IMG/VR virus record: IMGVR_UViG_3300012979_000002
Location: 32,001 to 96,000 of that record
DNA from: a virus
Lineage: Duplodnaviria; Caudoviricetes
DNA: 64,000 nucleotides
Strand: one strand, 5' to 3'
Of this stretch, positions 4,015 to 32,676 are shown piece by piece (position 1 is the first letter of the stretch; each line of letters starts with the position of its first letter). The position numbers and the translations under genes are program-made. The notes under the pieces are model-generated. The model was given only the letters and a program-made list of their open reading frames with translations, was not told the DNA's origin and made no database searches.

Positions 4015-7000
4015 ATGAATAATAAAAGAATTCAAGCACAAATGCAAATAGATGTTTCATTTGTTGGGAAAACAACCAATCTCGTAAAAGATTTACAGTC
4101 TGGCATTAAATCTTTAGACCTTAGCTCCGCTTTAACGAAAAATATAGGGTCTAATCTAAATAAAAGTTTTAAAGACATTTATGCTAACTTAGACCGTATG
4201 GCTGAAGGATTAAGCAAGAAAGGCTTAAGTCCAAAACAATACAACATATTTTTCGATACCATCAATGCGAAGGTAAACGAAACTGCCCAAATTTTTGGCA
4301 ATTTGAAGAAAACATTAGATGATGTTTATAATAGTGAAGAAAACAAGAAAGCGATTAAGGATTTAACAACCTTAAAGAAAGAGCTTGAAGGAATTAATAA
4401 AGTAGTTGCTAATCAAAAGAAACTACAAACAAGGCAAAACACAGCTAAAACAAAAATTAAAGACTTGACTGGTTATGATTATGATGCCATTAAAGGAGAG
4501 TTAAGAAAAATTATTAACCGTCAAGGTACGGGTAAAGATTTAACATCGGGACAAGAAAAATGGTTATATCAAGATTTAAAACTTAGTAAGGAAGAGGCGG
4601 CTGAGGTTTTAAAACTTTTCAAACAAATAGATAGCTTAAGACAGAAAGAATCAGACAATACAAAAGAATTTGGGTCTGACCCTTTTAAGACAAAAATAGA
4701 CACCGAGAAGAAGATAGCTCAATTAGAAAAAACAGCTTATACGGCAGATGCTCACAAACATAACTTGAGTGTGTTTAGACAAGAAGAGCAAGCTCTACAA
4801 GATGTATATAATATTTCGGACACTCTATTAAGTCACTGGAATAGTGAGGTGCCTAGAGCTACACAAGAGGCCAAAGAATTAGCAGAAGCACAAAGTACCA
4901 TTAAAGAGATTTTTGCTCAATTTGGTATTACATTCTCAGCGGCTACACTTGTACGTGGTTTCCAAGACTTAGTAAGAGAAGCATTTAACTTCTATAAAGC
5001 CTTAGACAGTGCTTTAAATGAAATATATGTAGTTAGTAATTTAACTATTAATGAAGTAAATAAATTGCAAACAAGTTTCGTTGACATGGCGAAAACAACA
5101 GGAATGTCTATAGATGACATTACTCGTTCAGCGACTTTATTCTTTCAACAAGGTTTGGATACTGAAGAAGCTATGACCATGACTAAGGTTACTTCTGAGT
5201 TTGCGAAAGTAGCTGGTATAGATGCTACTAGTGCAGCTGACAAATTAACAGCGGCAGTTAATGGTTATTGTTTAGCGGCAGAAGATGCGGCTAGAGTAGC
5301 TGACAAATTTAACAAAGTAGCAGCAGCATCTGCAGCAGACATTGATGAGTTATCAACAGCGTTCTCTAAAGCGGCAGCACAAGCTAACCAAGCCGGAGTA
5401 GGAATGGATAACTACTTAGCATACATAGCAACAATGGTTGAAGCAACACGTGAAGCACCAGAAAACATAGGTACATCATTAAAAACAATCATGTCACGTA
5501 TGCAACAAGTTAAGATGTCAGGAACTACTGAAGATGGAGAAACAGACGTTAACCAAGTAGAAACGGCATTAAAATCAGTTGGAGTAGCTTTAAGAGATGC
5601 TCAAGGTGAATTAAGAAATCTTGAAGATGTATTCGCAGAGTTAGGACCTAAGTGGCAATCATTAGATAGAAATACTCAAGCTTATTTAGGAACTATCATC
5701 GCCGGTACTCGTCAACAATCTCGTTTCATTACATTAATGCAAAACTGGGACCGTGTATTAGACTTAGCAGACCAAAGTGCTAATAGTGCTGGAATGCAAT
5801 CATTGATGCACGCCAAAGCAATGGAAAGCGTAGAATCAAAACTACAACAATTAAATGTAGCTTGGCAAGAATTTGTATCTAACTTAACTGACTCAGGGAC
5901 AATTAAAGTTGTAATAGAATTATTAACAAAATTAGTAGACGCCTTGAACGATGGTACAAAACCTTTAATGTTAATAAGTGGTATTGTAGGATTATTAGGG
6001 CCTAAGATTGCTAAGTTAAATAAACCGTTAGGAAATATGGTTAAACATATGAAAGACGGAATAAAAGGAGTAGCTGCTTCCGTTAAGGGAGTAATTACTA
6101 AGAAGGGAGTTCAAGACAACCCTGCATATTTTACATCTGAAGCAGAGAAGAACTTTGCTATGGCTGACATTAAAATGCAAGTAGATGCCAATAGACAATT
6201 ACAAACTAGAATGCAAATGCGTTATGACGAACTTAAACTACAAGGGTATACAATAGATAATAACCAAGAGATGGTTGAGTTAGAATGCATGATTAATAAA
6301 GCCAAAGAAGATGGTGTAAAACTATCGACTAAACAAATGGAAATTTCCAACAAAGAGGTTATGACTAAAAAACAAGCAATGCAAAACGCTATTATGGCTT
6401 TTGAAGTTGCAGCTCAATCTATTTCTATGATGTTGTCAGAAGTAGATGAAGCAGCAGCTGGAGCTGTATCTGGAGTGAGTGGAGTAGTTGCTGGAGTTGG
6501 TAAGATAGCCACTGGAGATATTGTTGGAGGTACTATTTCCACTATAATGGGTGTTATTCAATTAGTTGAAACATTTAAAGATTGGGATGAAAAGATGGCC
6601 AACAAATTGTCAGAAGCAGCTAATAATATTAATCAGGCTGCCACTGAATTGAGTAATACTAAAACACAAATTAATTCTACTAATGAGTTGTTAGACAGAT
6701 ATGATGAGTTACAAAACAAAATCTATCGTACAGCAGCAGAGCAAGAAGAATTAAATGACATAGCTCAACAAATGGCAGACTCTTTTGATAGTGTTGAAGC
6801 CATTACAGACGCGTATGGTAATTTAACCATTAATGTAGCTAATGCTCGTCAAGAGTTAGCTAATTTACAAGAACAATACAATGAACAATTTGAAGATTTG
6901 AATAAAACAGAAAAAGACAGTGTGTTAGATGCTACTTCTGGTTTAGGTAACACCAATACTTTAACAGAGGCTTACGAGAAGGTATGGTCTACTAATAGAG

Positions 7001-11065: not shown

Positions 11066-12571
11066 ATGGTCAGAAGCGTAAAGACCGGAGAGCTATTTGC
11101 GACTTTTAATTATGACGGAAAAGACTGTGCCGACATGGGTATTTATAATGTTACCAGTGGGGCTGTTTATACAATGAACATTGAACCTACTTTTTCGGAC
11201 AAGAAATTAGAAGTACCAGCTTACGACGGTAAATATTATTATGGCACACAAATAACTGGACAACAATTTCAGTTTAATTGTTTTTGCCACGATTTGTTAG
11301 CAACGGAATATGATAGAATGAGAGCTTGGTTAAATCCAAGAAAAATTGGTAGATTAATTTTATCTGACCAGCCATACAAATACTATTTAGTTAAACCTGT
11401 TAGTGTATCTACATTAGGAGCTTATCCTTTAACTACAATTCAAACACCACAAAATTCATTGTTTGGTAGATACGCACCAGAAGATGTAGTTTATACAGGA
11501 AACTTCACAGTTACTTTTGAAACCGTAGGGTCAGCCTATGGATACGGGTTAAGCTATTATAGGGATGATTTAATTTATGACGCCGTATTTGTTTACGGTA
11601 AAAACTATTATTATGACACAGGACTTTTATATAAAGATATGTGTCCAAAGGCTAATTGGGAAATACAAGCCAATGCAGAATTACAGCCAATTCCTTTATA
11701 TAATCCAGGAAGCGCAGCTATAGCTCCTAGATACTTAATCCATTATGAAGGAGTTTGTAGTAAGAATACTTTTATTCAATTTACAAATAATACAACAAAT
11801 ACCTCAATGGTAGTGGACATGAGTGATTTAGGTGGAGACATGGTTTTAGACTTGGCATCACAAACAATTACTCAAACAGTTATTATTACAGATGAAAACG
11901 GCAAGGAAGTTAAAACAGAGAAACATTACTATGGTCGTTTTACTGGACAGTCATTAACCCTAAACCCACATGGCGAAATTATAGACATACCAGAAACGTT
12001 CACTGTTAATGATGAGAATGTAGCTCTATTTGAATTTAACACTTTTTATATTGTGGGCAATAGAGTATATTTTACAGGTTTTGGCCCAGTTAAAATTACA
12101 CAAGACTTAGTTGGTAAGTACTTTAGTGTTAATCATAACGGAGGTAGTAGAATAATTGCCGTGGACGAAACCCAATCAATTTTAACACTTGACCCAGATG
12201 TATTAACATATGACATTCCTAGACAAGGATGTCGTTATATTTATCGAGAAGTAGATAATGTATTACCATCAGATGATGATGGTACTATAGGAGAAGTTTG
12301 TGTTGTAGATGAAGTCTGGTATACATACCGTTACGATAAATGGGAAAAAACTAGTCTATTCTCTACCAAAGACGAATTCAAAGACTCTCGTGGAAATTAT
12401 ATAGCAATATACAGACCACTAGGAGCGACTATAGTGGAATTGGATAATTTAGTAATCACTACAGGAAACCACATCTCATACAAAGATGCGGCTGATAATA
12501 ATACAATTAAAGAAGGCAATAGTATGAACAGCTTTACTATGGAAGCTGAAATACTGCCTAGATATTTATAG
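11066..12571 (+). CDS. Distal tail protein (Dit) with inserted domain(s)
   Basis: Directly follows the TMP; N-terminal FNYDGKDCADMGI...VPAYDGKYY...WLNPRKIGRLILSDQPYKYY and LYNPGS motifs typical of siphophage Dit; 501 aa implies insertions. Confidence 0.8.
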   Translation: MVRSVKTGELFATFNYDGKDCADMGIYNVTSGAVYTMNIEPTFSDKKLEVPAYDGKYYYGTQITGQQFQFNCFCHDLLATEYDRMRAWLNPRKIGRLILSDQPYKYYLVKPVSVSTLGAYPLTTIQTPQNSLFGRYAPEDVVYTGNFTVTFETVGSAYGYGLSYYRDDLIYDAVFVYGKNYYYDTGLLYKDMCPKANWEIQANAELQPIPLYNPGSAAIAPRYLIHYEGVCSKNTFIQFTNNTTNTSMVVDMSDLGGDMVLDLASQTITQTVIITDENGKEVKTEKHYYGRFTGQSLTLNPHGEIIDIPETFTVNDENVALFEFNTFYIVGNRVYFTGFGPVKITQDLVGKYFSVNHNGGSRIIAVDETQSILTLDPDVLTYDIPRQGCRYIYREVDNVLPSDDDGTIGEVCVVDEVWYTYRYDKWEKTSLFSTKDEFKDSRGNYIAIYRPLGATIVELDNLVITTGNHISYKDAADNNTIKEGNSMNSFTMEAEILPRYL

Positions 12572-23299: not shown

Positions 23300-23947
23300 G
23301 TGGAAACTATATTAGACACAGCGAAAACACTGGGAACAGCCATAGCTGAGTTCATTTTATTAATTTATTTTTGTAAACAGTACATTGAAAAGAACTCAGA
23401 CCGTATTAATATAGGTAGAGGCGTAAAAGAACAAAGTGAAATTAGCAAAGAAATTATTGATACCATGGACCACTACAAAGAATTATTAGGCGCCGACCGC
23501 ATTTTACTTTTTGAATTTCATAACGGACAGCACTATTCAAACTATCGTAGTGCTTTAAAAATGTCGGCTTCATATGAGGTATACAGAGCAGGTTTAGAAA
23601 GCGTACGTGATAAATGTACCGGACTTCCTATTGCAGTAATGCCTCATTTTGTGGCGGCTATTACTAATGAAGGTCAAGCATGGTGTCGTGACATTGAAGA
23701 AATTAAAGGCAAAATGGGGAGCAGTTACGAATTTAAGAAGAACTTAGGTATTAAGTCATTTTATGATGTGGCTATTAGAGATAGCGCAGGAAATACCATT
23801 GGTTTTGTAGCTGTTCAGTGGAACGATACAATGCCAGGCATCGACCCTCATAACATTGATAGGTTAGCTGGGTATCTAGAATCATCAGTTAAAAAGCTAA
23901 CTCAATTAGATAAACAAGAGAAAAAAAAGTTTAATTTTTTTAAATAA
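23300..23947 (+). CDS. Membrane-anchored GAF-like domain protein (architecture similar to T4 holin T)
   Basis: GTG start after GGAGG; N-terminal hydrophobic helix; GAF-like pattern (ELLGADRILLFEFHNG...LGIKSFYDVAIRDSAGNTIGFVAVQW). Confidence 0.6.
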   Translation: METILDTAKTLGTAIAEFILLIYFCKQYIEKNSDRINIGRGVKEQSEISKEIIDTMDHYKELLGADRILLFEFHNGQHYSNYRSALKMSASYEVYRAGLESVRDKCTGLPIAVMPHFVAAITNEGQAWCRDIEEIKGKMGSSYEFKKNLGIKSFYDVAIRDSAGNTIGFVAVQWNDTMPGIDPHNIDRLAGYLESSVKKLTQLDKQEKKKFNFFK

Positions 23948-24035: not shown

Positions 24036-25160
24036 ATGTTTAAAGTAAAAGTATTATTACAATTCACAGATTTAACTACTAAAAGAAAGGAAGTGCGCAA
24101 ACCAGGAGATATTTACACAATAGACAACTATGACCGTGTAGAAGTTCTGTTAGGGAAGAACCCCCGCAAGGCAAAATTTGTAGAACTAATTGAAATTGAA
24201 AAACAATGCCCTACTACACACACGGAAAATAAAATCGTGGTTTTCCAAGACCTGTTGTATCGTATAGGAGGTATCGAAACTTTTGTGTTCAATTTCGTAA
24301 AGAACTTTAAAGACTATGACATTACTGTTATAGCTCGTGAATTTGCGTTAACACAAATGTTGGCTATAGCTCAATACGCTACTGTGAAGAAATATACGGA
24401 GGAGAGAATAGAGTGTGATACATTAATTCTAGGCAATTATAATTGCGACTATGTATTACCAAGGGTAAAAGCAAAAAAGATATATCAGATAATACATGCT
24501 GATTGGAGAGGTATTAAACAATTACCAGCATGGAAGGATTTCAAATGGACAAAGAACAAACGCATCGATGAAATCATTTGTGTATCGGATACGGCAGCTA
24601 CTGGATTAAAAGCTACCATGAATTATGATAGTAAGGTTATCCATAATATTTTAGACAATGATTATACCATAGAGGATGGCTTAACTTTCATAACAATGTC
24701 AAGAGCTACCCCAGAGAAAGGTATCGAACGAATGTTAAAAATGGCTCAAGAGTTTAAAAAAGCCAATAAAAAGTTTGTATGGTTTGTATGCTGTACATTA
24801 GACCAAGCCGATAGAAAAATTGTAGAGGCTATTAAACAGATACCAGAATTTGTAATCATCCCACCAAGCATTCATAATAAAATGCTAATTAAAGGATGCG
24901 ATTATTTAGTACAATTAAGTGATACAGAAAGTTTTTGTTATAGTGCCTATGAGGCATTACAACGCAATGTACCTGTTATTTTAACTGATTTCCCAGAAGC
25001 TCATAACATTGTAGATGATGGAGAAAACGGTTTTATTATAAAAAGAGATTTAAGCAATTTGGACGTAGATAGAATTTTCAATGAACGTCCTAAATCAACA
25101 TATTATGTAGATAGATGTAACCAAGATTTATGGTTGCAAGTTTTTAAAGGAGAATTATAG
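24036..25160 (+). CDS. GT-B (GT4-like) glycosyltransferase with an extra ~55-aa N-terminal domain
   Basis: IGGIET, IIHAD, ICVS, IHN, SRATPEKG, LSDTESFCYSAYEALQRNVPVILTD (E-x7-E), VDDGENGF. Confidence 0.9.
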   Translation: MFKVKVLLQFTDLTTKRKEVRKPGDIYTIDNYDRVEVLLGKNPRKAKFVELIEIEKQCPTTHTENKIVVFQDLLYRIGGIETFVFNFVKNFKDYDITVIAREFALTQMLAIAQYATVKKYTEERIECDTLILGNYNCDYVLPRVKAKKIYQIIHADWRGIKQLPAWKDFKWTKNKRIDEIICVSDTAATGLKATMNYDSKVIHNILDNDYTIEDGLTFITMSRATPEKGIERMLKMAQEFKKANKKFVWFVCCTLDQADRKIVEAIKQIPEFVIIPPSIHNKMLIKGCDYLVQLSDTESFCYSAYEALQRNVPVILTDFPEAHNIVDDGENGFIIKRDLSNLDVDRIFNERPKSTYYVDRCNQDLWLQVFKGEL

Positions 25161-25161
25161 T

Positions 25162-25431
25162 ATGAGAAAGACGGCTGCTTTTTGGACCGAGGACTTGCTG
25201 AATAAGTTTATAAGAGTGGCCATGCTTACCCCAGAGGAAAGCGAAATAATCAGGTTGAGAATATATAGCTACACTTTGGAAGAAATAGCGGCTGCCACCG
25301 GCTTGAGTACCAGCACTGTTTCTCGCAGAATAAAATTATTAAATGACAAATACGATGAAGTGGAAGTAGAATATGGGTTCCCTCATAGAACCAAATTAAT
25401 TAAGATGGATAAAGATGAGTATCCATCTTAA
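25162..25431 (+). CDS. Small HTH DNA-binding protein (LuxR/sigma region 4-like)
   Basis: LTPEESEIIRLRIYSYTLEEIAAATGLSTSTVSRRIKLL. Confidence 0.85.
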   Translation: MRKTAAFWTEDLLNKFIRVAMLTPEESEIIRLRIYSYTLEEIAAATGLSTSTVSRRIKLLNDKYDEVEVEYGFPHRTKLIKMDKDEYPS

Positions 25432-25446
25432 TTTTTTTTGCCTTTT

Positions 25447-25582
25447 TATCATTTCTCTATCACTAGTTTATCATAATTTTATTAAGTTCTTTTCATAGTT
25501 TTATCATTATCATATCAAAAGCTTGCGAACCCTTGTAAATAAAGGCTTCGCAGCTCTTTTTTCTTTTTATCATTTTTTATTA
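25447..25582. repeat. Phased array of TATCA-like boxes with an 11-bp period
   Basis: TATCA/TATTA/TTTCA at 25447, 25458, 25469, 25480, 25491, 25502, 25513; again at 25568 (55 nt later, in phase) and 25578. Confidence 0.85.
25520..25568 (+). terminator. Imperfect inverted repeat/terminator embedded in the phased array
   Basis: AGCTTGCGAACCCTT-GTAAATA-AAGGCTTCGCAGCT followed by a T-rich tract. Confidence 0.6.
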
Positions 25583-25588
25583 AACTGC

Positions 25589-25603
25589 TACTATATGAGT
25601 GAA
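25589..25603 (+). promoter_or_regulatory. Degenerate late-promoter-like motif upstream of the four-gene cassette
   Basis: TACTATATGAGTGAA, adjacent to the last phased box. Confidence 0.4.
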
Positions 25604-25639
25604 AGATAAAAAACAAAAAAAGAAAAGAGGTGATACAAA

Positions 25640-25891
25640 ATGTTTATAGGTAGTTTTTTTAGGGTACGCGACAGAACTGAAGCGGAACGAGCAATACCTA
25701 CAGGGACAGGCTCTACAATTATATTTATAGAAACCGAAAATAAGTTGTATGAGAAGAATAGATATGGAATGCTATTAGAGTATAATTTAGGCTTGTCCCC
25801 TAATGCTGAGCTTGATAAGCGTCTAACCGAATTGGAGACCGCTTTTAAAAAATTAAATGAAGAACTAGGAGGAACACAAAATGAGATTTAA
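25640..25891 (+). CDS. Cassette gene 1: small beta domain plus C-terminal coiled coil
   Basis: GAGGTG RBS; 83 aa; ELDKRLTELETAFKKLNEEL heptads. Confidence 0.75.
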   Translation: MFIGSFFRVRDRTEAERAIPTGTGSTIIFIETENKLYEKNRYGMLLEYNLGLSPNAELDKRLTELETAFKKLNEELGGTQNEI

Positions 25892-26126
25892 CCCACAAAC
25901 ACTAATGCAAATGATGGTACAAAGAGACCCTGGACTAATGCAACGCTTTCAACAATTTCAACAAATGATGCAGAATAGTCCACAAATGCAACAACAGTAT
26001 ATGGCTTTCCGTAAGGATATAGCTAACAACCCACAAATGCAAGACCAGGCGGTGAAGAGTGTAATTGATAAAATTAACAATTTACCACCAGCTGGGGGAC
26101 CAACACCCCCAACAAACATTGGATAA
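25881..26126 (+). CDS. Cassette gene 2: Gln/Met-rich low-complexity helical protein
   Basis: GGAGG RBS; LMQMMVQRDPGLMQRFQQFQQMMQNSPQMQQQ. Confidence 0.75.
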   Translation: MRFNPQTLMQMMVQRDPGLMQRFQQFQQMMQNSPQMQQQYMAFRKDIANNPQMQDQAVKSVIDKINNLPPAGGPTPPTNIG

Positions 26127-26184
26127 CACTTACTGGGCCCAGTCAAGTTTATCATATATATAGGAAAAGGAGGAAGGAAACACT

Positions 26185-26766
26185 ATGGAAACAATGAATG
26201 GAATTATGCCAGTATATAATATGGCAGACAACAACACTAATCGATGTGGATTTGGAGGAGGAGACGACTGGATTTGGTTATTAGTCTTCTTCGCTTTAAT
26301 GGGAGGAAATGGCTTCGGATTTGGTAACAATGCTAGCGCAGTTACATCAGATTTCTTATTAAATCAAACTAGCCGTTTAAGCGAACAAATCTTAACGCAA
26401 GCTAATGCTACTAATCAAGGTATCTGCGATTCTACTTATGCTATTAATAATAGTTTAAAAGATTTGGGGGCACAATTATCTCAATGCTGCTGCGACAACA
26501 GATTTGAGATGTCTCAAGGCTTCTGCGGAGTAAACAGAAACATAGACAACCTAAGATACGAAATGGCAGAAAAATTCTGTGCAGTTTACAACAATCAAGC
26601 TAGAGACACAGCTCAAATCTTACAAGCTATTTCAGACAAAGGATACCAAGAACAAATTAGAGAATTAGAAAGAGATAATTTAGCATTATCTCAACGTAAC
26701 CAAACTACAACCATTTTATCAGCAGTCCAAGATATGTTAAAAAACAGCGGAACTATTTCAGCGTAG
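26185..26766 (+). CDS. Cassette gene 3: Gly-flanked hydrophobic segment plus coiled coil with a CCC motif
   Basis: AAGGAGG RBS; GFGGGDDWIWLLVFFALMGGNGFGFG; AQLSQCCCDNRF; N/Q-rich coiled coil. Confidence 0.8.
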   Translation: METMNGIMPVYNMADNNTNRCGFGGGDDWIWLLVFFALMGGNGFGFGNNASAVTSDFLLNQTSRLSEQILTQANATNQGICDSTYAINNSLKDLGAQLSQCCCDNRFEMSQGFCGVNRNIDNLRYEMAEKFCAVYNNQARDTAQILQAISDKGYQEQIRELERDNLALSQRNQTTTILSAVQDMLKNSGTISA

Positions 26767-26769
26767 ATA

Positions 26770-27246
26770 ATGTTTAAGACTTACATGGACCGCATTTACG
26801 ATAGATACCACACGGAAACTACGATGCACGATACAATAGCAATTATATCAGAGATTATGGAAGAAGTGAGAGTAAAGGATGAGAAGATATATAATGACAT
26901 GATTTGCAAGTTAAAAAAGTATATGTATAAAGTTAGTTTAGAGGAAGCGGAAAGTATAGTTGCTAATATGTGGAACGAGTATGGTGTAAAAGGTGGTCGA
27001 TGGACATACGACCAAGTATGTGAAGTTGCCAAACAATACTCTATACCCGAAACGATAGATAGGTGTGAGTTATATGTCGTAATGAATATGTGGGCTACGG
27101 ACTATCAAAGAACCATGCAACACTATGGTTTAGACGATAGGGTAGACATTTATTTAATGTTCAGTTGTGATTGGCTAACAGATTGCGACTTTGGTAAAGG
27201 TAAAGTATATAAATACTTTGTAGAAATGAAGAAAGAGGATGAATAA
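26770..27246 (+). CDS. Cassette gene 4: helical protein of unknown function
   Basis: 158 aa; EAESIVANM...GGRWTYDQV...LYVVMNMWATDY...DWLTDCDFGKGKVYKYF. Confidence 0.75.
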   Translation: MFKTYMDRIYDRYHTETTMHDTIAIISEIMEEVRVKDEKIYNDMICKLKKYMYKVSLEEAESIVANMWNEYGVKGGRWTYDQVCEVAKQYSIPETIDRCELYVVMNMWATDYQRTMQHYGLDDRVDIYLMFSCDWLTDCDFGKGKVYKYFVEMKKEDE

Positions 27247-27264
27247 TCCTCTCTTTCTTTTTTT
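27229..27264 (+). terminator. Rho-independent terminator closing the cassette
   Basis: AAGAAAGAGGAT-GAATA-ATCCTCTCTTTCTT followed by a T-run, overlapping the stop codon. Confidence 0.8.
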
Positions 27265-27326: not shown

Positions 27327-28520
27327 ATGGCAAAAATGACAGACAAAGAAAAGATTGCTCGCATTGAAAAGGCGCCAAAAGAAATGCAAACTATGGTAGC
27401 CAAAGCCTTTATTAGAGAGGACATTGACAATGAAAATATTCAGTTCCTATTTAATACTGACACAATCGAACAATTAAATGACCCTAACGAAGATAGTGGG
27501 GTAGAAAACATTAACGCTGAACAACCGCAAGGAATCGGAGCAGGTGAATTTTTCGTTAGAACTTACAAACCTAGTAACAACAAGAACTTTATAACTACTG
27601 GGTCTGGCGGATGGAACACTTGTATCAAGGGATATCCTATGGACGCTAACGCGAATGTATTGGCAAACTGTGTAGGGTATGCTAGTGGACGCTTCAATGA
27701 AATCATCAATGAAGCAAGAGGAACTACTGGATGCGCTTACAAAGGTTTAAACTGTAATGCAGAGTGGTTCATTGAAAGAGCAAACCAAGCTGGATTGAAA
27801 ACTGGTTCAACTCCAAGAGTTGGAGCTATCATGTGCTGGCAAAAAGGTACAGTAGATGGCGGAGGCGATGGAGCCGGACATGTTGCTATTGTTGAAAAAG
27901 TAAATAGTAATGGAACTGTTTATACATCAGAATCAGGTTATGGCTCAACAGCATTCTGGAACCAAACGAGAAGTAATTCTAATGGAAGATGGGGAAGCGG
28001 AAGTGGATACACATTTAGAGCTTTTATTTATTTACCTAGTGATGTTCAAAAGGTAGTAGATGGAGCAGTTAATCCACCAGCACCAACACCTACACCTGGA
28101 CCAAGTGGTAAGTTTGAAATTGGAAATAAAGTAGTCATTAATGGACCTTTATATTATACAGCAAACGATACAACACCAAATGGTTCAGTATCAAATAAAA
28201 TAACTACTATCACTCGCAAAGCAGTGGGGACAGCTCATCCTTATAATACTGAAGGAGATTTAGGATGGATGGATGAAAGTTCAATCACTCAATATGTTGA
28301 ACCTGCACCAGTACCTACTAAAACATTAGAGATAGGTAATACCGTTAAGATTGTAGGGACTGGAAACGGTAGTTCATATGGTACATCAAATACCGCTTAT
28401 GGTATCGGATGGACTAGACAAATTTTAGACATCTATGAGGGCAGACCTTACCCTTATAGAGTTGGTAATGCAACTGGTACTACAGGTTTTTATAAAGCCA
28501 GTTCGTTACAAAAACAATAG
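27327..28520 (+). CDS. Endolysin: CHAP domain plus two SH3-like cell-wall-binding domains
   Basis: NCVGYA (Cys), GHVAIVEKV (His), SESGY; Pro/Thr linker; two domains beginning FEIGNKV and LEIGNTV. Confidence 0.9.
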   Translation: MAKMTDKEKIARIEKAPKEMQTMVAKAFIREDIDNENIQFLFNTDTIEQLNDPNEDSGVENINAEQPQGIGAGEFFVRTYKPSNNKNFITTGSGGWNTCIKGYPMDANANVLANCVGYASGRFNEIINEARGTTGCAYKGLNCNAEWFIERANQAGLKTGSTPRVGAIMCWQKGTVDGGGDGAGHVAIVEKVNSNGTVYTSESGYGSTAFWNQTRSNSNGRWGSGSGYTFRAFIYLPSDVQKVVDGAVNPPAPTPTPGPSGKFEIGNKVVINGPLYYTANDTTPNGSVSNKITTITRKAVGTAHPYNTEGDLGWMDESSITQYVEPAPVPTKTLEIGNTVKIVGTGNGSSYGTSNTAYGIGWTRQILDIYEGRPYPYRVGNATGTTGFYKASSLQKQ

Positions 28521-28543: not shown

Positions 28544-28849
28544 ATGATAACAGTTCAAGAAAAAACTGTCGATTTAACAAACTATAACTCTGAAGACCTA
28601 TTTATTAGCAAGGCAGACGGAGGCACTCTTTATATTCAATTAGAAGGAGATGCCTCTATTAACCTTACTGGTAAAAATTCAGAACTAGAAACTTATGTTA
28701 GCTTACCAGTAGTTAATATGAGTACATTTGTTAAAACAGACAACATTACATCAGCAGGGTTCTATATGTGTGTAATTGGTGGTTTAGACCAAATTAAAAT
28801 GGAAGCCAACGGTTCAGGGAAAATGCACTGGAAGGTTATGGGTGATTAA
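28544..28849 (+). CDS. Small beta-rich hypothetical protein
   Basis: GGAGG RBS; 101 aa. Confidence 0.65.
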   Translation: MITVQEKTVDLTNYNSEDLFISKADGGTLYIQLEGDASINLTGKNSELETYVSLPVVNMSTFVKTDNITSAGFYMCVIGGLDQIKMEANGSGKMHWKVMGD

Positions 28850-28851
28850 TC

Positions 28852-30096
28852 ATGGCAGTAGATGTATTTGCAAGAGCCCTTGCCGTGGCAGCTAGTGATG
28901 GAGCCAAAGTAGATTTAAGTAATTATTATACAAAAGAAGAAGTAGACAACAAAGGATTTGTTCCTACTTTTATGTGGGACGGTAGTAGTAGTGAAGACAA
29001 TCCTGACAACCTTCAACTATTTACTGATTTTTATAAAGCTTGGGAAGAATATAATGGAGAAGTTCATTTAATGGCTACGACTCCACATTCTCAAAACCCT
29101 GTTTATATGGCTTTGAGCGTTCAACGTGACTTGCCTCATGGAGGGAAAGACTATTTTTATTTTTCATCAACGACGGATTGGTGGAGTTCAGAAGACTGGG
29201 ATAGCGAAGAATGTCAATTCTATCAAAAGTCTGCTTCTGCCATTTTCAGAAATGGAGAGTGTATAGAAGTTTCTGAGCTAGGTGATTATGAACTTAACTT
29301 TAACTATTTATCAACTACAAGAGTATACGGTGGAGGAGATTACTACAGCCCAATTTCTGACGGAAGTCCAGTTTCTAAGGGGTATATGGTTGAGGTTTTA
29401 CAGGATGGAACATATTCTGTAAGTCCAGAACAATTAGAAGAAAAGTTTCAAACTTTAATAACAGAACCAATTCTTACCGTTGAGGAAACAGAAACAGACG
29501 AAATAGAGTTTGTTGCTTATGAACCTGAAGAAGGCGGAGAATATGATTTCGTTTATGAAGATAAATGGTGGGGTTCAGGGTATAGGTCTAACAACGGAGC
29601 ACATGATAACTCTTATGCTCTTGGAAAGTTTATACTTAATAACCCAACTGATAAAACTCTTAGATGTTCAATTGACTATGATTTAAGTTGCGCTGTTGGA
29701 GATACAGCGGTATTTTCAGAACTAGATACCGAAGTGGCAGCAAACAGCTGGAATGATTACACTAACGTTCGTAAAGTAATCACAGGAGAAACTTATACTT
29801 ATGGTTCAGTTACATACGATTTAACACCAGGAGAACACTTTATTACCTTTAAATATATGGTAGGCTGGAAAGACGAAGGTGAAGGCGAAGAAGATTCATT
29901 ACTTGTTTCTTATGGTTGGACACATGGAGTGGTTCAAGAACATCAATTAGCCACAGAACAATTTGTAAAAGATTATGTTGCAGCTAACGGTGGAGGAAGT
30001 GGTGAAAGTTATACTAGAGAAGAGATTGACGAAAAAATAGGAGACATCAATTCTATTTTAGCTACCATAGTAACTCCTACAGAAGAGGAGGCATAA
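28852..30096 (+). CDS. Acidic putative virion protein with a possible beta-sandwich domain
   Basis: VDLSNYYTKEEVD and YTREEIDEKI fibre-type motifs; SNNGAHDNSYA...GEHFITFKY. Confidence 0.55.
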   Translation: MAVDVFARALAVAASDGAKVDLSNYYTKEEVDNKGFVPTFMWDGSSSEDNPDNLQLFTDFYKAWEEYNGEVHLMATTPHSQNPVYMALSVQRDLPHGGKDYFYFSSTTDWWSSEDWDSEECQFYQKSASAIFRNGECIEVSELGDYELNFNYLSTTRVYGGGDYYSPISDGSPVSKGYMVEVLQDGTYSVSPEQLEEKFQTLITEPILTVEETETDEIEFVAYEPEEGGEYDFVYEDKWWGSGYRSNNGAHDNSYALGKFILNNPTDKTLRCSIDYDLSCAVGDTAVFSELDTEVAANSWNDYTNVRKVITGETYTYGSVTYDLTPGEHFITFKYMVGWKDEGEGEEDSLLVSYGWTHGVVQEHQLATEQFVKDYVAANGGGSGESYTREEIDEKIGDINSILATIVTPTEEEA

Positions 30097-30099
30097 AAT

Positions 30100-31353
30100 A
30101 TGGCTACCACAGAACAATACTTAAAAGAGATTATAAAACAAAAAGAAACGCTAGCGCAAACCCTAAAAGATAATGGTGTTGAGGCACAGAGCGAAGAGAC
30201 CTTTAATACACTAATACCAAAAACAAGTACTATCAGACCAGAGCCAGAGCAAGGTTTCATAGTTGAAGAATGGACTAAACAAACTAACTCTGGTTCGAAG
30301 GTACCTAAAATAATTAGAACTATAGGATACGAAGTATTACCAACCTTTGGTTTTGCTTGCATATCACCAGGTTTTGGAAGTCCTTGCGGATTTACTGGAG
30401 ATGTAACAGAGGTTTACTTAAATGAAGGATTAACAGATACAGGACGTTATGCCTTTTATTCATCTGCAGGAACTTCATCTGTTAATAGATTAAAAACAGT
30501 TCATTGGCCTTCTACCATTCAAAAGATAGGGTCTTATACTTTCTATAATAATGGTAAATTGGAAATGAGCGAATTACCTGAAACAATTACATCTATTGGT
30601 TCATATGCTTTTTACAACTGTGATAGCATTACTTTTAAAAATATACCAGATGCAGTTAATTCGATTGGTGACTATGCTTTATGCTCTTCAACAGGATTAA
30701 CAGAATTGACTTTGAATGTTGAGTCAGTTGGAGACTATGGGTTATATAACAATACTAATTTAACCACTCTCCATTTTAAGAAGCCAGTATCACTTGGGGC
30801 TAATGCTTTATATGGTAATTCCAAATTAACAAACTTAAACACTGAGAATATTATTACAGCAGGGTCTAACGCTTTTGCTAATGTACCATTAGAAGATTTT
30901 AAATTTGATAGTTGGGAAAGTACAATACCTAAATTAGCATTTTCTGATGTACCAACCCTAAAGATAAAAACTTTACCAGCACATATTACTGGTTTAAGAG
31001 ATGGTAGTTTTAGAAATGACAAGGGTATTACTCAATTGTCTTGTTATATTACCAACGCTTCTGATGGTTCTAGTTACTGGTATCCTTTTAGTGGATGTTC
31101 TAATATTAAGGCTTTGTATTTTGCTGCGCCTTGGGATACTCCAACACAAACTAGAAGTCGTTATATAGGTTCTGGTTGTACAGGATTAAAATATTTATAT
31201 ATTAATATGCCTAGGGCTGAAGTTGAAGCTATGTCTGGTTATAGTTATAAATTTGTTAACAAGGCAGCTCAAGAAGTTACAATCATATGTAATGATGACG
31301 CTGACTGGATAACTAAAGAAGAGTTCGATGCTATAGATTGGACTACTAGATAG
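30100..31353 (+). CDS. BspA-type leucine-rich-repeat (LRR_5) protein
   Basis: Repeats of P.TITSIGSYAFYNC type; N-terminal KQKETLAQTLKDNGV...ETFNTLIPK anchor-like segment. Confidence 0.85.
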   Translation: MATTEQYLKEIIKQKETLAQTLKDNGVEAQSEETFNTLIPKTSTIRPEPEQGFIVEEWTKQTNSGSKVPKIIRTIGYEVLPTFGFACISPGFGSPCGFTGDVTEVYLNEGLTDTGRYAFYSSAGTSSVNRLKTVHWPSTIQKIGSYTFYNNGKLEMSELPETITSIGSYAFYNCDSITFKNIPDAVNSIGDYALCSSTGLTELTLNVESVGDYGLYNNTNLTTLHFKKPVSLGANALYGNSKLTNLNTENIITAGSNAFANVPLEDFKFDSWESTIPKLAFSDVPTLKIKTLPAHITGLRDGSFRNDKGITQLSCYITNASDGSSYWYPFSGCSNIKALYFAAPWDTPTQTRSRYIGSGCTGLKYLYINMPRAEVEAMSGYSYKFVNKAAQEVTIICNDDADWITKEEFDAIDWTTR

Positions 31354-31365
31354 GAGGTATAAAAC

Positions 31366-31785
31366 ATGTTAGATGCTATATTAACAACTTTAAAAATTAT
31401 GGGTTGGTTAGGTGTTGTATTAGCACTTGTAGTAATAGTAAATACAGTATGCGGTACAGTATTTAACATCAGCTCTAAGAAAGAAAATTTCTGCTGGAAA
31501 AGATTATTAAAAGGTTTAGGAAAGTCATTAGTTTTTTATATAAGCGCTACCTTAATGGGAGTTGCTTGTACAATGCTACCTTACATTAATGAAATGATTA
31601 CTAAAGCTTTCGGTACAGTACTACTTTCAAATGATATTTTAACTACACTGTCTAGTGTAGGAGTTTTAGGTGTGGTAGTAGCTGCTATCGTATCGCTAGG
31701 TAAAAAAGCTATCGCAAATGTGGTAAAGTTAGCAAACATGGCTTACGAAACAGAAGAAATTACTTGGAAAGTAGAAGAAGAATAA
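31366..31785 (+). CDS. Probable holin (three hydrophobic segments)
   Basis: 139 aa; three hydrophobic stretches; FCWKRLLKGLGK; charged C-terminus. Confidence 0.7.
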   Translation: MLDAILTTLKIMGWLGVVLALVVIVNTVCGTVFNISSKKENFCWKRLLKGLGKSLVFYISATLMGVACTMLPYINEMITKAFGTVLLSNDILTTLSSVGVLGVVVAAIVSLGKKAIANVVKLANMAYETEEITWKVEEE

Positions 31786-31803: not shown

Positions 31804-32676
31804 ATGGGCATTTATAAGAGAGTAAATAAAACTTGTGGGAACCCAGGAGACTTGTATGCCAATGTAAGAGAAGATAGTAATAAGGCTACTGTTCATACGC
31901 CTTATGGTACTAGAGTATATCAAAAAGTATCAAAAGACCAAATGGACGAAGACTTATTAATGAAAATAAAATCTAACCCAAATCTATCAATGGCGGAGTT
32001 AATGCCGTTCATTGATGCTTTGGGAGATTATATTTTCTTAACAAACAAGCCTAAAATTAATGGTGTTGTTTTAGAAGGAGATAAAAGCACAGAGGATTTA
32101 AAAATCTACAGTAAGGTCGGTGCTGACATTGTAACCTTTACCGATGGAGAAACATTACAAGAAAAATATGACAATGGTAGTTTCGGTAATGGGGCCAATG
32201 ATTATGCCAAATTAAACAACAAACCTACAATCAATGGCATTGTATTAAATGGAGATTTAACTGCTGCGAGTCTAGGTATCATTGATGATACCGCTCCTTC
32301 AACTCAAGGTACTTGGTCATCTGCTTATATTAAACAGCAAATTGATACTGCCCCAGCGGTTATTACTTCAATAAGCGGCACTGATGAAAAGCCTATCATT
32401 GCTGCGGACTTGCTTTTAGGCTCATATGTTATATCTGGAAAGATACAATCAAGTCAAAATAATGTGACCACAATCAGAGTATCAAAACCAAGACAATATA
32501 TAGTAAATAGAGATGTAGAAGGTACTACTGTGTTATGGGAACAAAACCCATTCGCAGCATCACAATACTATATAGTATTTTACCACGAAGGTCCAGACGC
32601 ACCACAGGAGAAGACCATAGACGTGGTAACTAAGGCTGACTTAGAACAAGCTAAATTAGACTGTGGTAATTTCTAA
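31804..32676 (+). CDS. Putative structural protein with duplicated NKPxING motif
   Basis: LTNKPKINGVVLEGDKS and LNNKPTINGIVLNGDLT; C-terminal LDCGNF. Confidence 0.55.
   Translation: MGIYKRVNKTCGNPGDLYANVREDSNKATVHTPYGTRVYQKVSKDQMDEDLLMKIKSNPNLSMAELMPFIDALGDYIFLTNKPKINGVVLEGDKSTEDLKIYSKVGADIVTFTDGETLQEKYDNGSFGNGANDYAKLNNKPTINGIVLNGDLTAASLGIIDDTAPSTQGTWSSAYIKQQIDTAPAVITSISGTDEKPIIAADLLLGSYVISGKIQSSQNNVTTIRVSKPRQYIVNRDVEGTTVLWEQNPFAASQYYIVFYHEGPDAPQEKTIDVVTKADLEQAKLDCGNF

Follow-up and report, generated by a model that had tools for sequence, protein, structure and literature searches.

A widespread non-enzymatic phage cassette built around a putative membrane-tethered helical protein occurs in reduced form beside the lysis genes of a caudoviricete phage

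We analysed a 64,000-nucleotide stretch of viral DNA (here called the window; positions 32,001 to 96,000 of the IMG/VR record IMGVR_UViG_3300012979_000002, Caudoviricetes), and in particular a unit at 25162-27264 that consists of a small helix-turn-helix (HTH) gene, hth, a spacer with repeated TATCA boxes and four closely packed genes, g1 to g4. This gene set is a conserved, non-enzymatic, mobile phage accessory module with the core trio g1-g2-g3. The best overall explanation, to which we give a probability of about 0.45, is that the window holds a reduced copy of this widespread mobile cassette, which would be made late in infection and would form a complex tethered to the membrane by g3. A first-pass annotation made from the sequence alone had described the HTH gene, a spacer of about 200 bp with TATCA boxes in 11-bp phase, four packed genes and a terminator, and all of these, including the five open reading frames (ORFs), lie where that annotation placed them. 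The genes are:

25162-25431, + strand: hth, 89 amino acids (aa); Pfam Sigma70_r4, E 5.6e-8, 32.6 bits (cut-off 24.1)
25640-25891, + strand: g1, 83 aa; small alpha/beta domain and C-terminal coiled-coil helix
25881-26126, + strand: g2, 81 aa; Met/Gln-rich, helical, with NPQM repeats
26185-26766, + strand: g3, 193 aa; the core protein; phrog_16490, E 3.6e-9 (residues 62-184)
26770-27246, + strand: g4, 158 aa; DUF7841 (PF25223), E 1.2e-15, 58.2 bits (cut-off 25.2), residues 48-150

Iterated hidden Markov models (HMMs) of the cassette genes were built on 93 loci from Clostridium perfringens phages, uncultured gut and rumen phages, and prophages of 80 Clostridia species genomes. The order of g1, g2 and g3 is the same across these loci. 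g1 stands directly upstream of g3 in 84 of the 93, a small sigma-region-4-like HTH gene precedes the cassette in 67, and about 79 have a g2-like ORF in the gap from g1 to g3 (42 recognised by HMM and 37 by inspection, where this gap holds a Met/Gln/Asn-rich ORF of 55-88 aa). The window scores with all the iterated HMMs, in the order hth, g1, g2, g3, duf7841. Thus hth, g1, g2 and g3 co-occur in a fixed order, and the proposal of a self-contained non-enzymatic module around a protein with a hydrophobic helix and a coiled coil is borne out; the first-pass mention of a similar gene order near lysis genes of uncultured gut Firmicutes phages also agrees with many of the 93 loci.

The module is common. 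With tblastn, g3 found homologues in C. perfringens phages and uncultured gut phages that have g1-, g2- and g3-like neighbours in the same order, and blastp against the C. perfringens phage XP41-N3 gave E 3e-34 for g3 and E 2.5e-4 for g2. A search of 5.8 billion proteins with g3 returned 117 homologues, all unnamed, and the full profile search 3,778 cluster representatives at E <=1e-3, 2,142 of them at 1e-10. Among species-representative genomes 133 carry a relative, nearly all of them Clostridia, including isolates of Muriventricola, Agathobaculum and Enterocloster and a complete Lachnospiraceae chromosome. A blastn search of the region against GenBank phages gave no match, and the IMG/VR scans found two close relatives and no more. 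The sequencing runs that carry this DNA are pig-gut, manure and viral metagenomes, with no RNA run among those listed.

Downstream of the core trio the loci differ in their accessory genes, which encode a Cys-rich beta protein (38 loci), an Arg/Gly/Tyr-rich protein (57 loci) or a helical protein of 105-132 aa (17 loci). DUF7841, the family of g4, gave 21 hits overall, 16 of which are long forms (208-282 aa) at the position of g4 in distant loci. A further protein, of 175-335 aa and unmatched in Pfam, has a ferritin-like-looking motif (F.GL.GFK..HE); its gene stands behind the cassette in C. perfringens phages and in two phages from the gut (L001 5658-6185, L003 5368-6366, L012 7292-7900). The Arg/Gly/Tyr-rich family (x232), the long DUF7841 proteins and the ferritin-like-looking family showed no detectable kinship to each other, and apart from DUF7841 the accessory families had no named match in Pfam, NCBIfam, PADLOC or PDB sequences. 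A blastp similarity between the N-terminus of g4 and the C-terminus of the 105-132-aa protein (E 4e-5) was discarded, as profile-profile comparison gave no support. Between hth and g1, many distant copies contain a gene for a papain-like Cys-His protein of 125 aa, for example at L011 1517-1894 and at L102 (the phage Ceridwen) 3045-3422; this explains the gaps of 440-700 bp between hth and g1 in about half of the loci. The window copy does not have it.

The hth product resembles the HTH of sigma-70 region 4 and of LuxR-GerE proteins and stands alone. In NCBIfam and PADLOC it gave only weak generic HTH matches, the NCBIfam match covering region 4 of the sigma70-ECF superfamily alone (TIGR02937, positions 108-157 of 165, score 30.3 and thus under the cut-off of 42.9). 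A sigma factor was rejected, because region 2 is absent beside region 4 and the protein has only 89 aa. The gene starts 1 nt past the stop codon of the preceding glycosyltransferase gene and is therefore probably co-transcribed with it, from the preceding late unit.

In the window g1 has a short form and lacks the Gln/Pro/Tyr-rich N-terminus of most homologues. Its AlphaFold2 model (mean predicted local distance difference test, pLDDT, 73) has a beta-alpha-beta3 unit and a C-terminal helix. The top fold matches were trimerisation domains of collagen XV/XVIII and neck domains of tailspikes, with scores that stay below threshold (Foldseek E 0.15; VIA Z 5.2 to 4.7, under the level that separates true from chance matches); they give a hint of a role in oligomerisation. 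g2 overlaps g1 by 11 nt, an overlap that is kept in relatives and suggests translational coupling of the two genes. Each of g1, g2 and g3 is preceded by a strong ribosome binding site, and g3 and g4 are 3 nt apart.

g3 contains a Gly-flanked hydrophobic helix at about residues 28-40, followed by three long helices, and in the alignment of its homologues GIC, CCC and a single C are conserved. The Gly-flanked helix and the CCC motif, like the Gln/Met-rich composition of g2, are as the first-pass annotation had described them. The hydrophobic segment reaches a Kyte-Doolittle value of 1.77 over 15 residues and stays below 1.6 over 19. The AlphaFold2 monomer is all-helical with this one hydrophobic segment, and its pLDDT of 48 is too poor for a fold search. 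As a candidate holin g3 has one short hydrophobic segment and a place beside the endolysin, with no holin match in Pfam or PHROGs; a typical holin with three transmembrane (TM) helices is encoded separately. The Gly-flanked short segment also recalls the sporulation mini-proteins YjcZ/tiny_TM_bacill (TIGR01732), but g3 exceeds them in length four- to sixfold and possesses a helical body, and this identity was rejected, as NCBIfam gave no such match at E up to 0.1. In a few long proteins (P0283 with 842 aa, P0280, P0282) a g3-like part is joined to Peptidase_S74, GDSL lipase or glycosyltransferase domains. These are rare single-member clusters and may be artefacts of read-through or gene calling.

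Four of the five cassette proteins match no known structural or lysis family, in keeping with the first-pass view of an undescribed system. No named family was found for g1, g2 or g3 in Pfam, NCBIfam, PADLOC or PDB sequences, and in PHROGs there is one family, 16490, matched by g3 and without assigned function. NCBIfam and PADLOC gave no named match for g4 either, whose close homologues all carry PF25223. The PADLOC defence models matched neither g1-g4 nor their distant homologues; a PDB sequence search with profiles of g1, g3, g4 and the Cys-rich beta partner gave nothing below E 0.07; and in the ESM Atlas g3 hit unnamed viral clusters only and g4 nothing. Pfam and NCBIfam showed no DNA-binding domain in g1-g4, and no signal peptide was found on g1, g2 or g4. 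In the literature searched, on DUF7841, on phage-encoded exosporium or BclA proteins and under general descriptors, we found no paper on the cassette.

Comparison with the distant loci indicates what the window copy leaves out. In most homologues of g3 the C-terminus carries a PxPAY motif and a tail rich in Cys and Gly (CGCGC). The window lineage (L004-L007, L094, L096-L100) lacks them, and some of its members lack even the CCC motif. Hence the disulphide-linked assembly envisaged in the first-pass annotation does not hold as a core feature. The window copy also has no Cys-rich beta partner (the BclA-like "knob"), a protein whose occurrence does not follow from that of the Cys tail. Its DUF7841 protein is without an Arg/Tyr/Gly-rich arm, and low-complexity extensions found elsewhere are missing. 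g4 itself is optional, as in L007 and L097 the endolysin gene directly follows g3. As judged from its genes, the window copy is a minimal or reduced form of the cassette, and the parts missing from its lineage leave as the putative indispensable core the domain and coiled coil of g1, g2, and the anchor and helical body of g3.

The position of the cassette varies. In a survey of the neighbours of 72 loci (the two nearest large ORFs on the upstream side), endolysins or holins are frequent upstream, where about 21 neighbours match endolysin catalytic domains and five match Phage_min_cap2. On the downstream side integrases are frequent: tyrosine integrases were counted 13 times, serine recombinases twice and scaffold proteins five times. 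In five loci the cassette lies between minor capsid protein 2 and the scaffold. In C. perfringens phages it is found in the early region, with an antirepressor on one side and Gam and Erf genes on the other. Thus the sites include positions after lysis genes, before integrases, inside head modules and in early regions, and from these variable neighbours it follows that the module moves as a unit between positions.

In the window lineage the order is fibre genes, glycosyltransferase, usually hth, spacer, g1-g2-g3, optionally g4, endolysin and 3-TM holin. In L099 hth is two genes away, and L100 has no hth between the glycosyltransferase and g1 while spacer and cassette are kept. Likewise kept upstream of the cassette in this lineage is a protein that has a hydrophobic helix at its N-terminus and matches GAF weakly (E 0.006; window 23300-23947, L004 4088-4768).

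In the cultured Butyrivibrio virus Ceridwen the endolysin gene is directly followed by a full cassette (HMM E values 5e-26 for hth, 2e-38 for g1 and 2e-66 for g3). The host genus of this phage, Butyrivibrio, is not known to sporulate. A full cassette in a lytic phage of such a host, like the lack of an integrase in the window phage, speaks against a place on the spore surface as well as a role limited to lysogeny. In Ceridwen (L102) a Cys-rich, HNH-like-looking ORF of 264 aa at 5489-6283 splits the cassette between the beta partner and the Arg/Gly/Tyr-rich gene; it may be an insertion of the homing-endonuclease type. Only lytic growth of Ceridwen was observed, on Butyrivibrio fibrisolvens DSM 3071, and its authors deem the phage virulent (PMC7372960).

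The viral record is complete (120,526 bp, with direct terminal repeats), and no tyrosine integrase and no resolvase was found in this complete genome. Bases 246-46700 of the window form a single long + strand block of structural, fibre and lysis genes. Within it the unit is flanked and followed by:

24036-25160, + strand: GT4 glycosyltransferase, the 5' flank of the unit
27327-28520, + strand: CHAP endolysin, the 3' flank of the unit
31366-31785 of the window: 3-TM holin, distinct from g3

In the window three genes (101, 414 and 417 aa; 28544-31353) separate the endolysin from the holin. In the relatives L004, L007, L097, L099 and L100 the holin directly follows the endolysin, and the three-gene block therefore looks like an insertion into the lysis module.

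The 208-bp spacer between hth and g1 contains, in this order, a first terminator, the TATCA array, a second terminator, an in-phase TTATCA and the sequence TGcTACTATAT; a third terminator closes the operon:

25398-25441, + strand: terminator 1, a 14-bp stem that overlaps the stop codon of hth, with eight T in a row behind it; folding free energy (dG) -15.7 kcal/mol, z -5.5
25447-25517, + strand: TATCA array, with 11-bp-phased boxes at 25447, 25458, 25469, 25502 and 25513 and an off-phase box at 25508
25520-25566, + strand: terminator 2, an imperfect palindrome followed by a T-run; dG -15.8, z -3.7
25567-25596, + strand: promoter-like region, a -35-like TTATCA, a 16-bp spacer and TGcTACTATAT, 50 bp before the start of g1
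27228-27264, + strand: terminator 3, a hairpin and U-run overlapping the g4 stop codon; dG -12.6

TGcTACTATAT contains the motif [CT]ACTATA[TA], which occurs 13 times on the + strand in bases 1-46700. Six of these occurrences (17958, 23258, 23986, 25589, 27285 and 40886) fall in the 1.3 kb of these bases that is intergenic, where each follows an intrinsic terminator and stands 37-50 bp before a gene start. The same motif thus fronts g1-g4, fibre genes, the glycosyltransferase and the endolysin, and its GCTACT part is kept in nine of nine relatives. A variant, ACTTATTATTAGAGAG, precedes the gene at 11066. The shorter motif is enriched, whereas the 9-mer TGCTACTAT alone is not. From its distribution, [CT]ACTATA[TA] is probably the late promoter of this phage.

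A possible interpretation of these findings is the following. g1-g4 would be transcribed late, behind the motif shared with fibre genes and endolysin, between two terminators and immediately upstream of the endolysin and holin genes. g3 would be tethered to the cytoplasmic membrane by its hydrophobic helix and would extend from it as an elongated helical stalk, on which g1, g2 and g4 would assemble as a non-enzymatic complex. As these partners have no signal peptide, we place the assembly on the cytoplasmic side. The order in relatives, where cassette, endolysin and 3-TM holin directly adjoin each other, supports this reading. What such a complex would do is more tentative; the likeliest of the roles considered, though less probable than not, is a late function at the membrane, for example in the timing of lysis or the exclusion of secondary infection, which the first-pass annotation had also named among its options. 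A virion, spore or partition function is probably not what the cassette provides.

Several points weigh against this interpretation. The g3 model is of low confidence, and the hydrophobic segment is short (about 13 residues) and without flanking positive charges, so that membrane insertion and topology of g3 are uncertain. We infer the late promoter of g1-g4 from the shared motif alone. In temperate relatives the adjacency to lysis genes may simply mean that the cassette occupies the slot behind the late operon where cargo genes are usually found, and the early-region location in C. perfringens phages fits poorly with a role linked to lysis. Finally, a canonical holin and endolysin exist apart from the cassette.

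The closest known parallel for late timing at the membrane in a lytic phage is lysis inhibition in T4, with the holin T and the antiholins RI and RIII. T is bitopic: a single TM helix joins a short stretch at the N-terminus to a large C-terminal domain that contains Cys, and its partners are small soluble or anchored proteins. g3 has the same gross layout and adjoins lysis genes. However, it has no sequence or fold relation to T, and its partners have no signal peptides; moreover, the window phage has its separate 3-TM holin, and the cassette is mobile and sometimes far from lysis genes. In its mobility and partial dispensability the cassette also resembles prophage morons, which are self-contained, with their own regulator, promoter and terminators, and often lie between lysis genes and integrase. 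Yet the window phage has no integrase, and the putative late promoter would point to service in the lytic cycle; besides, this class says nothing about mechanism.

A first alternative, which we regard as unlikely, is that the proteins are part of the virion or ejected from it, g3 being a rod similar to a tape-measure or pilot protein that inserts into the target membrane and g1, g2 and g4 its assembly partners. The late motif, the site among fibre and lysis genes, the five loci between minor capsid protein 2 and scaffold, the trimerisation and tailspike neck domains among the top folds of g1, and the one rare long protein that fuses a g3-like part with the Peptidase_S74 fibre-chaperone domain would all agree with this. 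But the fold matches stay under the level that tells true matches from chance ones, and the fusions are single-member clusters. Furthermore, unlike structural genes, the cassette is highly variable in position, occurring in early regions and in cargo slots near attachment sites, it has a dedicated small regulator and its own terminators, and its accessory genes are gained and lost.

It is quite unlikely that the cassette is lysogenic-conversion cargo that builds a cross-linked structure on the surface of the host cell or spore, similar to an exosporium. The model for this would be the nap of the Bacillus exosporium, with the C1q/TNF-like C-terminal domain of BclA (PF18573) and a Cys-rich basal layer. 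Distant cassettes resemble it, as most of their g3 proteins have the Cys-rich tail and many add the Cys-rich beta protein after g3, in one version (L012) with a weak BclA_C match; the cassette proteins have no signal peptides, a lack that is typical of Cys-rich coat and exosporium proteins; and temperate relatives often hold the cassette between lysis genes and integrase. The window copy, however, has neither Cys tail nor beta partner, no collagen-like repeats are present, and a module of the BclA or exosporium-nap type was rejected for it. Its phage lacks integrase and resolvase and its operon has the late motif. Carriers include seemingly strictly lytic phages, Ceridwen with its full cassette and non-sporulating host among them. 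The spore coat or dormancy role considered in the first-pass annotation is therefore unlikely as well.

Rather improbable, too, is a membrane-anchored organiser of phage replication or assembly, with low-complexity partners that might form a condensate. p16.7 of phi29 is such an organiser: an early, membrane-anchored coiled-coil protein of replication that ends in a DNA-binding domain. g3 shares with it the N-terminal hydrophobic anchor and the coiled coil, the lack of enzymatic motifs, the phage origin and the Gram-positive host, and the cassette's place beside the Gam and Erf recombination genes of C. perfringens phages and the Gln/Pro/Tyr-, Met/Gln- and Arg/Gly/Tyr-rich partners in relatives would suit this role. 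In contrast to p16.7, g3 has no DNA-binding domain, as have none of g1-g4, and is found behind the late motif; the window copy lies close to the lysis genes and misses the low-complexity parts.

The TATCA array was regarded in the first-pass annotation as a component of the system. As a pattern it is statistically real. With the in-phase box at 25568 (within the TTATCA at 25567) the TATCA boxes number seven over 126 bp; no other cluster in the window has more than three. Six of the seven share one phase modulo 11, for which the random chance is about 1e-5, and in 20,000 dinucleotide shuffles neither this count nor this phasing was ever attained. In the complete 120.5-kb genome the triple-box pattern has this one site only. 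But in the 250 bp upstream of g1 in 82 other loci no phased 5-mer array exceeded the control level. Close relatives retain the terminator, an AT-rich stretch with 1-3 TATCA boxes at spacings of 11, 22 or 44 bp, the element ATAAGGGTTT and the GCTACT late motif, i. e. weak versions of the array whose box sequences are poorly kept. Thus the array is specific to the lineage and stands outside the conserved system.

Two strong intrinsic terminators bracket the array, and the late-promoter motif lies downstream of both. The array is best regarded as a lineage-specific element, putatively regulatory or of curved DNA, just upstream of the operon's late promoter. Phased A-tracts bend DNA; as T-runs of at least four (25443, 25476, 25487, 25498) share the 11-bp phase of the boxes, the segment should be intrinsically curved. 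The array may be bound by the window-type HTH, or act as curved DNA, or be a set of -35/-10-like hexamers. The right arm of terminator 2 corresponds to ATAAGGGTTT, which is kept in relatives (alignment of nine). In the window it has the form ATAAAGGCTT (25536-25547); in relatives it lies about 50-55 bp upstream of the late motif, and in L004, L094, L097, L098 and L007 about 110 bp before g1. In L098 it is retained despite loss of the hairpin partner arm, which suggests that ATAAGGGTTT is a protein-binding site rather than a mere terminator stem.

One specific version of the hexamer reading, to which we attach a low probability, is that overlapping promoter elements of the sigma-A type make up the array, with -35-like TTATCA and -10-like TATCAT in a register of 22-23 bp, and fire a short RNA ending at terminator 2. 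A promoter scan matched TTATCA, 17 bp and TATCAT at 25446-25474, terminator 2 lies 50-80 nt downstream, and in four relatives the boxes stand at multiples of 11 bp. However, the sites found by the scan are no more numerous here than in shuffled sequence, the box sequences are poorly conserved, the predicted RNA is unstructured apart from the terminator, and Rfam gave nothing near threshold. Highly improbable, and largely refuted, is the first-pass proposal of a partition or DNA-tether device with the array as centromere, the HTH as adaptor and g3 as membrane anchor: phased direct repeats do lie beside a DNA-binding gene and a membrane protein, but the complete genome has no AAA_31 (ParA-like) or ParB_N match, the array is absent from the other 82 loci and weak in close relatives, the HTH gene is displaced in L099 and missing before g1 in L100, and the array sits between two terminators just upstream of the putative late promoter of an operon that shares its motif with structural and lysis genes.

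Coming back to the membrane-tethered complex, we tentatively propose that hth-g1-g2-g3 represents a new class of phage system: a non-enzymatic, membrane-tethered rod complex, made late, by which thousands of Gram-positive gut phages would control a step at the cell envelope, for example the time of lysis or the exclusion of secondary infection. The window would hold the minimal core with its own regulator, which would read the phased TATCA platform. The window copy is informative in two respects: as it has neither Cys tip nor BclA-like partner nor low-complexity arms, these parts can be dispensed with, and it serves an integrase-less phage from what we infer to be a late promoter, which reduces the number of possible roles. 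Carriers that can be cultured, namely Ceridwen with its host strain DSM 3071 and several phages of C. perfringens, XP41-N3, HMD-PC1 and vB_CpeS-17DYC among them, open the cassette to direct testing. Thousands of phages of gut, rumen and Clostridium carry the module, as do prophages of many cultured and uncultured Clostridia, and it has neither a named function nor a structurally known relative; it therefore points to a common, hitherto unrecognised step in the biology of gut phages and their hosts.

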